Shown: piece by piece, positions 29,809 through 32,840 of the stretch | How positions within the stretch are numbered: position 1 is the first letter of the stretch | How the letters are laid out: each line of letters begins with the position of its first letter | DNA from: a virus | Taxonomy: Duplodnaviria > Heunggongvirae > Uroviricota > Caudoviricetes | Length of the DNA: 64,000 nt | Virus record (IMG/VR): IMGVR_UViG_3300010213_000001 | Span: 180,701-244,700 of that record | Reading direction: 5' to 3' (one strand) | The notes under the pieces: model-generated | What the model was told of the DNA's origin: nothing | Seen by the model: the letters and a program-made list of their open reading frames with translations, nothing else | Database searches by the model: none | Program-made: the position numbers and the translations under genes

Positions 29809-30351
29809 TTACATATTATCAGCGATATAATCTACCTTCTCACGAATTGGACTAATTGAAGCTTCCATCACAGTTCCAAAAGCATTGAATAACTTCTTCT
29901 CTGGTGTCTCAGTCATGTCTTTTGTAGCAGCAAGCTCCACTTGATCCAAATAACTTTCTAAACTAAAGTCAATATATTCTGCTTTGACTTCATTAGTTTC
30001 CTCAAACATCATATTAGCCTTTACAGATTCTATGATTTCTGCCATAAAAGCAGGAACAATATTTGAAGCTTCTATTCTCTTGCACACTGTATCTAGCTCT
30101 TCAGTATCAGGTAATTCATATTCATCACCAAAGCTTTTCATTATGAATTCCTTAGCAGTTTCAGCATCTAAGCCTTCCATATTAATAATACAGCCAATTC
30201 TTTTTCCTCTTAAGAATGTAGGCTCTATCATTTCAATGTGATTAGTAGTGAATATAGATATAACATTCATCTGCTTAGTGTCACCACCATCTAAAGTGTT
30301 CAAGATGTCCTGCATACTTGAATCTCTATCACCACGAGCTACTTGATCAAT
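29809..30351 (-). CDS. classical AAA+ ATPase, exon 3 (post-Walker-B, sensor 1, Arg finger, C-terminal helical domain)
   Basis: Track ORF starts at a TTG. IDQVARGDRDSSMQDILNTLDGGDTKQMNVISIFTTNHIEMIEPTFLRGKRIGCI corresponds to the AAA consensus eiDaig.kR...l.qlL.emDG....vivIaaTNrp..lDpAllRpGRfd. Confidence 0.7.
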   Translation of the reverse strand: MDQVARGDRDSSMQDILNTLDGGDTKQMNVISIFTTNHIEMIEPTFLRGKRIGCIINMEGLDAETAKEFIMKSFGDEYELPDTEELDTVCKRIEASNIVPAFMAEIIESVKANMMFEETNEVKAEYIDFSLESYLDQVELAATKDMTETPEKKLFNAFGTVMEASISPIREKVDYIADNM

Positions 30352-30610
30352 CAAATTTGTTATCTCTAAGGCTCTTTATCCTTAGATTCTGCAATTTTAT
30401 ATATAGTTGCAGTTCAGACTATATCTTTAACCTAATAATTAGGCAGTGTCCCGCTTTCGTGGGGAAATTTATAGCTACAGCTTTACCTGTTTAGCGTCAT
30501 CCCTAGTCGTTTGGCATTTACACTTATTTCTAAGTGATTTAGCACAGGATTGTCTTGTATTAAGAGTTCCCCTGTTTAACGGAATTTAAAGAGAACTATG
30601 ACCATATTTA
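30352..30610 (-). mobile_element. group I intron, subgroup IA2 (T4 td-like), ORF-less, ~259 nt
   Basis: Exon ends …AGAGGAU. Internal guide GUUCUCU pairs with it, with a U•G at the splice site. Core AAACAGGGGAACUCUUAAUACAAGACAAUCCUGUGCUAAAU closely resembles the T4 td P3–P4 region. R GCCAAACGACUAGGG (30501..30515). S AAGAUAUAGUCUGAAC (30413..30429). Ends in G. Confidence 0.8.
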
Positions 30611-30769
30611 ATCCTCTAAGAACAAGATAATACCGTTGCCATTCTTATCCAAAGTTTGGCATAAGCGCAAAGTTTCAGCAAGAATTGTTGGATCTTTAAG
30701 ATAGATAAATGACCAGCCTTTATCAATCGCTTCTTTAGCTAATTTAAATGCAAGTAATGATTTTCCTGT
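30611..30769 (-). CDS. classical AAA+ ATPase, exon 2 (Walker A lysine to Walker B)
   Basis: Translation TGKSLLAFKLAKEAIDKGWSFIYLKDPTILAETLRLCQTLDKNGNGIILFLED, then an in-frame stop inside the intron. Joins to exon 1 (…GVLFSGRYG) to give Walker A GRYGTGKS, and to exon 3 to give Walker B ILFLEDIDQVARG. Confidence 0.7.
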
Positions 30770-32102
30770 CGTTTCATTCAAAGAAGTTCGCTACACTTCC
30801 CCCGTTTATCAGCTTGCTCTGACAACTGCTGTATATTTCTATACAGACTAGACTATATCTTCATCCTTCTATAATTTATAAAAGGATGCGCACCGTTTCC
30901 TTTACCAATAGCTTGTAAAGTACTCCCATTTCAGGGATAGTCGTTGAACCGATAACTTACTTTAATAAGTTACCATTGGCTGCTGATTGTCCAATCCTAT
31001 TAATTTTCAAACATTCATACAATCTCACGACTGTATTGTAGTTTAATAGGCTCTAAGGATATCCCAGCAATTAGATGCGTCCACTCAACAAATTACTTCA
31101 TTGAGGGGCTTCCTATATTCTACATAATTCAAATTATCAAAGTGTTTGTTTACGAATTTATCTAATTGTTCTTGTTTGAAGCCTCCTTGTAATCCAACTA
31201 GCTTTGCTAATTGTTGTTTAGTCTCAAACTTTAAGATCTCATTATCTAAATAGACTATAACTCCAGTGTTGTAATAGGTAGACTGTTTCCACTTACCTTC
31301 ACATTTTACCTTGTATCTATTGCCATACTTAAGGTTAATAGGAGCTAATACGTTCTTTAGATTGCTTCCAGTAGTACTTATATCTAGAAAATCACACATG
31401 TCTTTTCTAGATGGAAAGCTATAAATCTTATTAGTTAAAGTATCTAACAGTTCAGTTTCAACATAATGAGGATGAGAATAATTATTTAAATCTAACATTT
31501 TATCTACTTTTTCTCTAGAGAATTGGTAACCTTTTGCAGATTTAATCTCTCCTCTTAAACATTTAGATATTGTTCCAGGATATATTCCAAGCTCTTTAGC
31601 AGTATCCTTAACTAATCCTCCTTCTTTTATAAAGTTCCCAGAATAGTCATAGATATAAAGCTTTTTAGCTAGAAGCTTACTAGCAGATTTATCGCCTTCA
31701 GAAGTGAATTTACCTTCATCTACGATACAGTTAGTAAGTTTATGCTTTTCTCTATACTTGAAGATTAATTCAGTCTCCATTTTAGCTGCCTCTTCTCTAG
31801 TATTAAATGAAGCTAACAATCTAATATATGGTTTGCTATTAACCTTTAATATGGATTTTATCCAGTTATTCTTATAAGTATTTTTAGTTCTGCCTGCTCT
31901 TGCTTCTGATATATGGCTTATAAGACGTTTTTCTATTTTAGATTTAGTTATACCAACATATCTTACTTTCAAAGTAAAAGGGTCGACTAAACAGTACACT
32001 TTGTAATTTTTCATTTTATTTAGTTGTAATAGTTATATAAAGTTTATTGTCTTATTTAACTACTATAACTAAATAAAAGTTGCATTATGCAGAAAAGGGT
32101 TC
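30770..32102 (-). mobile_element. group I intron (td-like) with GIY-YIG homing endonuclease ORF, ~1.33 kb
   Basis: Exon 1 ends in U (…UAUGGU). The HEG ORF begins about 90 nt into the intron. After the HEG stop come the catalytic core elements: R CGGUUCAACGACUAUCCC (30934..30950), S AAGAUAUAGUCUAG (30845..30861), then the terminal …GAAUGAAACG with omega-G. Exon 2 follows as ACAGGAAAA. Confidence 0.75.
31085..32014 (-). CDS. GIY-YIG homing endonuclease (intron-encoded)
   Basis: N-terminus VYCLVDPFTLKVRYVGITK...RLISH is the GIY-YIG motif. 309 aa with a DNA-binding-like C-terminal extension. Paralogue of 15369..15974. Confidence 0.8.
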   Translation of the reverse strand: MKNYKVYCLVDPFTLKVRYVGITKSKIEKRLISHISEARAGRTKNTYKNNWIKSILKVNSKPYIRLLASFNTREEAAKMETELIFKYREKHKLTNCIVDEGKFTSEGDKSASKLLAKKLYIYDYSGNFIKEGGLVKDTAKELGIYPGTISKCLRGEIKSAKGYQFSREKVDKMLDLNNYSHPHYVETELLDTLTNKIYSFPSRKDMCDFLDISTTGSNLKNVLAPINLKYGNRYKVKCEGKWKQSTYYNTGVIVYLDNEILKFETKQQLAKLVGLQGGFKQEQLDKFVNKHFDNLNYVEYRKPLNEVIC

Positions 32103-32840
32103 ACCATATCTTCCACTAAATAAGACCCCGTATTTAAGTGGGATGCCTTTAGCTTTGCATTCTTCAGGGTTTCTAATTCTTCCAAGTAAAGGACGAAGAT
32201 TGAATTGAACCTTAGTGGAAATCACCATTAGCTCTTTGTCTATGTTGCTTAGATTAAGCGCTTTAGGGGTAAAGTTCCCATCTAATTCAATAGCCATATC
32301 TTTATAGATAGACTCCGTATTTAGAAGCTGCTTTGTACGATTGATAATTTGATCCATCAATGGACTGAATTTGTGTTGACATGAACCAGTTACGAACAAC
32401 TCTCTATTTCTAAAGTTGTAACCAATGTTTATGTTTGCATCCTCTCCCATATCAGGTAGGTTAATAGCACCATAAATTACTTTCTTTCTAACTCCGTTAG
32501 CTAGTTCGATATCTAGAGTTTCCACATTTCTAGTGCCTCCAGAAGGGTTCTTCTCTATTTTAGCTGGAGAAGCGCCAACAAGCTCTTCAATAGCTCTATT
32601 CAGTTGATATACTCCATCATCTCTAAAGCATTTGACAGTATAATTAACATCTACCATTGTATCTGCTAATGCTATTTCATTCTTTAAGTAAGACAAAATC
32701 TCCTTGTATGACTTAGGACCCTGTCCTAAATCAACGAGCTTTCTCTTTTGTTCTTGCTCCCATCCAGATATAGCATCTATTACTGATGATGCTGTTGATT
32801 CCTGTTTAACTTTCGCTAGTGCTACTTTCGACTTTGACAT
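32103..32840 (-). CDS. classical AAA+ ATPase, exon 1 (N-terminal domain to first half of Walker A)
   Basis: ...NPEECKAKGIPLKYGVLFSGRYG corresponds to the 'kGvLLyGPPG' lead-in of Walker A. The track ORF reads on into the intron (EPFSA*). Confidence 0.7.

Follow-up and report, generated by a model that had tools for sequence, protein, structure and literature searches.

The question raised by this locus is whether three open reading frames (ORFs) of 251, 57 and 181 aa, found by gene calling on one strand of a phage genome, are separate genes or pieces of a single one. The genome is that of an uncultured Caudoviricetes phage (IMG/VR record IMGVR_UViG_3300010213_000001), of which a stretch of 64,000 nucleotides, from position 180,701 to position 244,700, was analyzed; this whole stretch is referred to below as the window. 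An earlier note on this DNA had described an AAA ATPase gene in which the Walker A motif is split by one group I intron (intron 1, 1333 nt) and the Walker B motif by another (intron 2, 259 nt), the two junctions being 159 nt apart. The gene of three exons and two introns is confirmed, all of these coordinates and lengths hold, and the interpretation given in the note is in essence correct. Two introns, which belong to group I (phage IA class) and resemble that of the T4 td gene, very probably interrupt the gene and splice themselves out, and one of them carries a putative homing nuclease. For annotation, this means that the ORFs of 251, 57 and 181 aa are one ATPase of 479 aa, and that the fourth ORF at the gene is to be labeled as a putative homing endonuclease and not as a phage function.

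Both introns lie between codons (phase 0), with junctions GRYG/TGKS for intron 1 and LFLED/IDQVARG for intron 2 (here and below, a slash marks a splice or insertion point). The joined exons comprise 480 codons with the stop, so that the protein itself has 479 aa. None of the three exons contains a stop or a frameshift, while both inserts present stops in the exon frame directly after the junctions. The frame of exon 1 continues for five codons past its junction before reaching a stop, which yields the 251-aa ORF, and exon 2 has no plausible start of its own except a TTG located within intron 1.

The strongest evidence for the spliced product comes from its homologues. A large protein collection holds 971 of them, and the best 120 are uninterrupted proteins of 449-550 aa (nearly all 460-485 aa) with 50-62% identity. 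In an alignment of 15 sequences, there are zero gaps at both junctions of the spliced ATPase, and the residues around them are invariant (Y245 G246 / T247 G248 K249 at the first junction, E298 D299 / D301 Q302 V303 at the second). Every column that is invariant across the 15 homologues is kept by the spliced ATPase, including the motif halves beside both junctions. This gap-free alignment, which goes far beyond what chance would give, and the invariance of the flanking residues indicate that both inserts must come out precisely.

The 479-aa product matches Pfam PF00004 with 54.7 bits (cut-off 21.2, E 1.9e-14, residues 239-356) and belongs to the phage family phrog_10440 (E 2e-50), whose function is unknown. 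It presents a GRYGTGKS Walker A motif, as well as TTNH and PTFLRGKRIG, which are invariant in the family. Its best matches by sequence among solved structures are Cdc48, p97, VAT, Rix7 and the proteasome Rpt subunits. The best NCBIfam matches are CDC48 (38.8 bits versus a cut-off of 802), PAN and FtsH (approximately 20 bits), and none of the named AAA subfamilies (CDC48, PAN, FtsH, SpoVK/CbbX) reaches its NCBIfam family cut-off. Judged by these matches, the AAA domain of the product falls in the classical clade, while phrog_10440 forms a family apart from the named subfamilies. The description as a classical AAA ATPase thus stands, supported by PF00004, the motifs and the Cdc48-type structure matches. 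The Walker B motif (codons 295-299, 30611-30625) is F[VL]ED throughout the 15 aligned members, i.e., with Glu before Asp, whereas Asp-Glu is the usual order in classical AAA proteins. Large uncultured phages of gut and marine samples commonly carry this family. A metagenome scan with the single protein returned no close relative of the ATPase, exact-sequence look-ups with two proteins of the window gave no match, and a DNA-level relative of its gene was not found in the phage database, which gave short matches to the intron core only.

The inserts themselves were compared with Rfam by means of Infernal, a check the earlier note had proposed. Against the group I intron model RF00028 (model positions 1-253, gathering score of 50), intron 1 obtains 92.2 bits (31116-30829, E 2e-22) and intron 2 obtains 50.8 bits (30630-30389, E 6e-10). 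Both scores reach the gathering score, both matches cover the full model from position 1 to 253, and RF00028 is the sole Rfam family matching either insert. The sequence elements listed in the earlier note are all present in both introns: the R elements (GTTCAACGACTA at 30949-30938 in intron 1, GCCAAACGACTAG at 30515-30503 in intron 2), the S element AAGATATAGTC (30861-30851 and 30427-30417, its sole two exact matches in the window), the U.G pair at the 5' splice site, and the terminal G.

Compensatory changes were evaluated in an alignment of intron 1 with the introns of four homologous AAA loci (L080, L078, L077 and L068), whose cores are 68-80% identical to that of intron 1. In this alignment, 94.7% of the cells are paired, and 56 of the 92 pairs change on both sides. 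When the partners are slid by 1-3 columns, these values fall to 35-43% and to 10-15 pairs, and none of 500 shuffles matches the observed values. The consensus helices are P2, P3, P4, P5 with an extension, P6, P6a, P7.1, P7.2, P8, P9, P9.1 and P9.2; P4 and P7 are invariant in this family, and therefore uninformative for covariation. Relatives of intron 2 were sought by scanning for a td-like P4-P5-P4' pattern, which yielded 108 viral stretches, including seven close relatives at 70-83% identity. In the resulting family of eight sequences, 23 of 42 pairs are compensatory, P2 is absent, a single nested arm of the P7.1 type is found, and P9.1 is the only helix of the P9.1/P9.2 region. Several of these relatives have a LAGLIDADG ORF directly upstream of the core, and several look like insertions in DnaB helicase-like genes, judged by the motifs of their translated flanks. 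Covariance-model matches, compensatory changes, U.G pairs at the 5' splice sites and terminal G residues all agree with the claim of two group I introns.

The subgroup IA2 (i.e., the type of T4 td, nrdB and sunY and of Twort) is reportedly characterized, following Michel and Westhof, by P7.1 and P7.2 between P7 and P3', by peripheral P9.1/P9.2, and by td-like P7 and J8/7. P2, P7.1 and P7.2 are named as class criteria in the literature (PMC3984707). Intron 1 has P7.1 and P7.2 side by side, in addition to P2, P9.1 and P9.2, all of them with covariation. The assignment of these introns to class IA is well supported, and the subgroup IA2 is likely. The coordinates of all features are presented in Table 1.

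Table 1. Gene, intron and insertion coordinates; positions are those of the window, except for L080 to L076, which are those of the homologous loci.
Feature	Position	Strand	Description
AAA ATPase gene	32840-29809	minus	3 exons and 2 introns
Exon 1	32103..32840	minus	codons 1-246; 3' end ...GGA AGA TAT GGT = GRYG, first half of Walker A
Exon 2	30611..30769	minus	159 nt, 53 codons (247-299); from ACA GGA AAA TCA (TGKS) to TTA GAG GAT (LED), Walker B ILFLED
Exon 3	29809..30351	minus	codons 300-479 and stop; opens ATT GAT CAA GTA = IDQVARG
Exon 3 motifs			sensor-1 TTN; arginine-finger region PTFLRGKRIG
Intron 1	30770..32102	minus	group I, 1333 nt; preceded by U32103, last base G30770
Intron 1 P1, 5' strand	32084..32105	minus	exon GGU 32105-32103 with splice-site U; extension strand = intron nt 9-19 (32094-32084)
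Homing endonuclease ORF (putative)	31085..32014	minus	309 aa, GIY-YIG and NUMOD1, in P1 loop
Intron 1 P1, 3' strand	31107..31128	minus	extension AUUAUGUAGAA 31128-31118; guide GCC 31109-31107, its G opposite the splice-site U
Intron 1 ribozyme core	30829..31116	minus	P2 to P9 including P7.1 and P7.2; RF00028 92.2 bits
Intron 1 3' part	30770..30828	minus	P9.1, P9.2, 3' tail, terminal G
Intron 2	30352..30610	minus	group I, 259 nt; preceded by U30611, last base G30352
Intron 2 internal guide	30590..30598	minus	UAGUUCUCU
Third intron	20808-21235	minus	428 nt, ORF-less; exons 21508-21236 and 20807-19956
Fourth intron	35599-36595	minus	997 nt; exons 37993-36596 and 35598-35278; ORF 35635-36369
L080	4673-5080		408 nt, ORF-less; intron 1 site GGT/ACA
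L078	4709-5060		352 nt, ORF-less; intron 1 site GGT/ACA
L077	208-1522		1315 nt, GIY-YIG ORF; 5 nt upstream, GGGT/ATGG
L068	3069-3997		929 nt, GIY-YIG ORF; residue 125, TATGGT/GAC
L076	2711-4000		candidate; insertion with LAGLIDADG ORF, 6 nt downstream, GGT/AAA

In intron 1, exon GGU pairs with guide GCC, and an 11-bp extension (intron nt 9-19 with nt 975-985, dG -18.7 kcal/mol by RNAduplex) closes a loop of approximately 960 nt that contains the endonuclease ORF. The same P1 design, in other sequences, is found in L080, L078, L077 and L068. GCC(C/U) directly 5' of P2 is conserved in the five related introns, and in L077, inserted 5 nt upstream and with a 5' exon ending in GGGU, the P1 pairing becomes GGGU with GCCC. 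A second candidate guide, GUUAUA, located 44 nt into intron 1 and able to form 6 bp (three of them wobbles) with exon UAUGGU, was rejected, since GCC is kept in all five members, re-pairs in L077, and is closed by a covarying extension. In intron 2, P1 has 9 bp (AGAGGAU/UA with UAGUUCUCU), with U.G at the splice site; it is recovered by the minimum-free-energy fold, and a pairing of this quality is reached by 2% of shuffled exons. A P10 of 6 bp with the 3' exon is possible for this intron (-6.0 kcal/mol, 3% of shuffles as good). In the Rfam alignments, P1 was judged wrong for both introns, as intron 2 is given a hairpin within the exon and intron 1 a local one.

The ORF of intron 1 passes the Pfam cut-offs for GIY-YIG PF01541 (25.7 bits versus 22.6) and NUMOD1 (31.3 bits versus 22.8), and stays just below that of I-HmuI_NUMOD-like (26.6 bits versus 27). 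Its residues Y7, Y19, R30 and H34 are invariant when aligned with Y6, Y17, R27 and H31 of I-TevI, although for the catalytic Glu the alignment is not clear-cut. The GIY-YIG homing endonuclease gene (HEG) which the earlier note had placed in intron 1 is thus supported by both the Pfam cut-offs and the motif residues shared with I-TevI, and the encoded GIY-YIG/NUMOD1 protein is apparently intact. It is 40-45% identical to the intron ORFs of L077 (311 aa, 40%) and L068. A sequence search of solved structures returned for this ORF chance-level matches to 3C proteases only. The internal guide sequence and P2 overlap with the final 11 codons of the ORF, and overlaps of this kind between ORF and ribozyme core are said to need controlled expression of the ORF (PMC3984707). 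A long, nearly perfect hairpin of approximately -21 kcal/mol is observed at 32014-32078 of the minus strand (intron 1 nt 25-89). It separates the P1 extension from the ORF, and its 3' strand finishes at the AUG of the ORF. While the pre-mRNA is unspliced, this hairpin could hold down translation of the nuclease. Hairpins that limit the translation of intron ORFs have been described for T4.

In order to compare these introns with a known system, the T4 td intron (1017 nt) was taken from the T4 record. In both cases, a self-splicing group I intron (predicted here) interrupts a protein-coding phage gene within the codons of a conserved active-site motif. Intron 1 shares with td the helix set P2, P7.1, P7.2, P9.1 and P9.2, and the P7 strands (ACGACUA and UAGUC) and J8/7 (GAUAUAGUC) are near-identical. 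The family of intron 1 matches the 3' half of td helix for helix, and in L080 P9.2 and the tail are near-identical to it (UAAGAUUAACGACCUUAUGUGAACAAUACG versus UAAGAUUAACGACCUUAUCUGAACAUAAUG in td). As in I-TevI, the ORF of intron 1 consists of an N-terminal GIY-YIG catalytic domain and a putative DNA-binding tail. Core identity to td is 51-62% overall, with 62% for L080. The strong similarity of intron 2 to the td core, as claimed in the earlier note, is found in three collinear blocks of 79% over 42 nt (P3-P5), 94% over 17 nt (R element) and 89% over 19 nt (S element), but these blocks are short, and overall identity is only about 55%. The systems also differ in several respects. The host gene encodes an AAA ATPase here and thymidylate synthase in td; the ORF of intron 1 lies in an extended P1 and overlaps the guide and P2, whereas the td ORF follows P6 (intron nt 133-870); the exon part of P1 in intron 1 has 3 bp; and intron 2 has no ORF and no P2, its P7.1 region being nested instead of side by side.

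Under the proposed mechanism, the pre-mRNA would fold at intron 1 by pairing exon GGU with guide GCC, stabilized by the 11-bp long-range helix over the loop of ~960 nt, and at intron 2 through the local 9-bp P1 and 6-bp P10. Guanosine-initiated transesterification would then excise both introns, and ligation at GGU/ACA (G246/T247, within Walker A) and GAU/AUU (D299/I300, past Walker B) would restore the ATPase. The predicted ligated junctions are GATATGGT/ACAGGAAA and TAGAGGAT/ATTGATCA, and the spliced RNA is expected to contain the junction-spanning sequences GGAAGATATGGT/ACAGGAAAATCA and TTCTTAGAGGAT/ATTGATCAAGTA. The endonuclease would cut intron-less alleles in co-infecting relatives, and double-strand-break repair would copy intron 1 into them, as I-TevI does for T4 td. 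More speculatively, intron 2, which has no nuclease, may be a fixed relic or may be co-converted with the intron 1 site only 159 bp away.

The distribution of insertions among homologous genes bears on this homing step. The insertion-bearing homologues are AAA genes in IMG/VR contigs, from samples that keep the best-scoring matches and therefore favor uninterrupted genes. The majority of the homologous loci are intron-free. Five insertion sites, counting the candidate in L076, are found in the AAA family overall, of which the Walker B site is occupied in the window only. The lineage of intron 1 occupies three sites, each with a 5' exon ending in GGU, with and without an ORF, in hosts that are just 50-60% identical. 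Given the mostly empty loci, and the occurrence of a same lineage at three sites both with and without an ORF, this distribution fits a homing cycle of HEG gain, homing and loss. The residue-125 site and the P-loop site are alike in sequence (CCTTATGGT/GACATAGAA versus ATATGGT/ACAGGAAAA), as would be expected of ectopic cleavage or reverse splicing at a similar target. Homing, co-conversion, the preference for conserved codons and look-alike sites are reviewed in PMC3984707.

Rfam returned no group I match on L078, L080, L076 and L068, even at E 0.1. The intron calls for L078, L080 and L068 rest on alignment and covariation with the intron of the window. This is not the case for L076, in which only P7 to P9.1 are recognizable, by eye, and whose 3' end is like that of intron 2; this insertion is not confirmed as a group I intron. 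If it were one, its LAGLIDADG insertion would represent a second intron lineage at the P-loop.

Repeated homing into conserved codons, as the earlier note suggested, would fit the several occupied sites among the homologues. A more specific scenario is that the nucleotide-binding codons are a contested hot spot of selfish elements, with a jump to residue 125 within the gene and with the Walker B intron kept by co-conversion with intron 1; this seems possible, though we regard it as doubtful. If this is true, the gene would allow one to study in a natural setting how neighboring mobile introns interfere with each other and hitch-hike.

Insertion sites of introns and inteins are known to cluster in conserved motifs such as P-loops (PMC2814812), and neighboring inteins have been described in MCM (PMC10643990). 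The present gene resembles these cases in having two confirmed P-loop intron sites 5 nt apart and a candidate 6 nt further, in addition to residue 125 and Walker B, and differs from them in that its elements are introns and not inteins. In collaborative or hitch-hiking homing of ORF-less introns, a free-standing nuclease cuts at the insertion site of the intron itself (PMC3984707). Here too an ORF-less intron lies beside a nuclease encoded elsewhere; however, the nuclease is that of the adjacent intron, 159 bp off, so any co-mobilization would be co-conversion.

More than one group I intron per phage gene is itself not new: orf142 of Staphylococcus phage Twort has three. In Bastillevirinae, 45 intervening sequences were found in 37 genes (PMC11878797), and crAss-like and Jug phages have about 18 introns per genome, many of them confirmed by RNA reads (PMC12880540). 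The window is like these phages in presenting several introns in one gene, ORF-less and ORF-bearing introns together, and many introns per genome. It differs in the host gene family, in belonging to an uncultured phage lineage at 31% G+C, and in that both introns are at nucleotide-binding motifs 159 nt apart. From T4 td, nrdB and sunY it is textbook knowledge that conserved phage genes can contain group I introns bearing GIY-YIG, LAGLIDADG or HNH nucleases (PMC3984707). In T4, Twort, crAss-like and Jug phages, introns of the present kind are already familiar, and the understanding of group I introns is unchanged. A literature search did not find the phrog_10440-type AAA gene family described as an intron target. 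To our knowledge, there is no earlier description of this gene family in that role. A further host gene family, together with several insertion sites, is added to the catalogue of conserved-codon targeting; the clustering of the sites, the possible hitch-hiking of intron 2 and the number of introns under the standard threshold are of modest additional interest.

Several points weigh against the reading of two self-splicing introns, one of them with an active homing nuclease. Splicing and homing are both deduced from sequence alone, and the HEG activity of the intron 1 ORF is predicted. The P1 of intron 1 has three exon base pairs only, and a P10 was sought for this intron and not found; given these two properties, its splicing may need a protein cofactor or be inefficient. 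Intron 2 exceeds the Rfam gathering score by just 0.8 bits, the z-score of its single-sequence fold is modest (-2.3), and the Walker B site is free of introns in all the other homologues sampled. None of the relatives found is above 62% amino-acid identity, which leaves intron polymorphism within the population of this phage, the direct sign of current mobility, out of view.

The alternative that survives best is that both introns splice but neither is mobile now, the HEG being inactive and the introns inherited vertically. It is favored by the lack of a close relative that could display presence/absence polymorphism, by the absence of a significant solved-structure match and the sub-threshold I-HmuI_NUMOD-like score (26.6 versus 27 bits) of the HEG, and by the ORF-less state of intron 2. 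However, the HEG is of full length (309 aa, close to the 311 aa of the L077 ORF at 40% identity), keeps its GIY-YIG residues and passes the Pfam cut-offs, and the same lineage is scattered over three sites, with the ORF present or absent, in hosts 50-60% identical. We therefore consider the present immobility of both introns unlikely.

Much less probable is that the locus is a dead, fractured pseudogene, i.e., that the inserts are decayed relics which no longer splice, or that three separate polypeptides are made. What speaks for decay is what was held against splicing above, namely that splicing was read from the DNA, that the P1 of intron 1 is weak and lacks a P10, and that intron 2 is at the Rfam threshold; in addition, exon 1 continues for five codons to a stop and would be called as a 251-aa ORF. 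The exons nevertheless present no stops or frameshifts and keep every invariant column of 15 homologues, and both ribozyme cores are complete over model positions 1-253, with P7 and J8/7 sequences matching T4 td. As for three polypeptides, exon 2 has no plausible start of its own, and a Walker A motif divided between two polypeptides could not bind ATP.

Inteins, group II introns, insertion sequences or an assembly chimera are hardly credible: P-loops are classic intein sites and the length of the L080 insert is a multiple of three, but both inserts of the window have stops in the exon frame directly past the junctions, find their sole Rfam match in the group I covariance model, and form group I helices backed by covariation; related introns occur at the same site in independent assemblies, which argues against a chimera. 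The intein reading of the L080 insert, which its in-frame length had suggested, was rejected given that stops are present throughout.

The two self-splicing introns proposed for the ATPase gene are not the only ones in the window, which contains at least four group I introns, although the Rfam threshold applied to the whole window reports two. The third intron follows a U (GGTCAT/AAAAC) and ends in G. It obtains 39.1 bits from Rfam in a narrow search and E 1.8e-12 from nhmmer with a profile of the intron 1 family. Its predicted spliced host is a protein of 374 aa with the junction CWGH/SHVNMGVSPSGQD, in which a JAB/MPN-like HxHx7Sx2D motif is cut between both His (H/SH); the match to Pfam Prok-JAB, of 17.3 bits, is below the cut-off. 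Homologues of this JAB-like product, sought in order to validate the junction, were found neither in the collected homologous loci nor in the phage database. The fourth intron carries an ORF for a LAGLIDADG protein of 244 aa (PF14528, 41.9 bits) looped out of P6, and obtains from Rfam split, sub-threshold matches of 34.7 and 16.8 bits. Its spliced host is a DUF2828/DUF7788 protein of 572 aa (IVCFSD/GEFNRTGND), and the DUF7788 match (residues 360-542) spans the predicted junction at residue 466.

RF00028 also misses the introns of L078 and L080, even at E 0.1, though they are 73-80% identical to an intron that scores 85-92 bits, and detection of the third intron varied with the length of the submitted sequence, a filter effect. 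Intron counts obtained for uncultured phages with default cmscan are thus likely underestimates.

All large ORFs of the window are on the minus strand. The window has 31% G+C and contains tRNA genes, a CCA-adding enzyme and other ATPases, and most of its proteins have no PHROG match. Two uninterrupted ATPase genes are located just downstream of the interrupted one, on the same minus strand (24898-25773 and 27080-28294), one of which is clamp-loader/RFC-like and the other a phrog_2376 member with weak RuvB-like matches. With these two adjoining genes, this part of the genome is rich in P-loop ATPases. Three odd tRNA-like genes are also observed on the minus strand, at 51881-51990, 59219-59339 and 46444-46512. 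The first two reach 43.3 and 29.4 bits with the tRNA model only if an insertion of approximately 45-55 nt is taken as a very long extra arm, and they are not called by ARAGORN; the one at 51881-51990 has an anticodon stem of 4 bp and a loop of 8 nt. ARAGORN does report the gene at 46444-46512, giving it a 6-nt loop and a two-base anticodon of undetermined identity.

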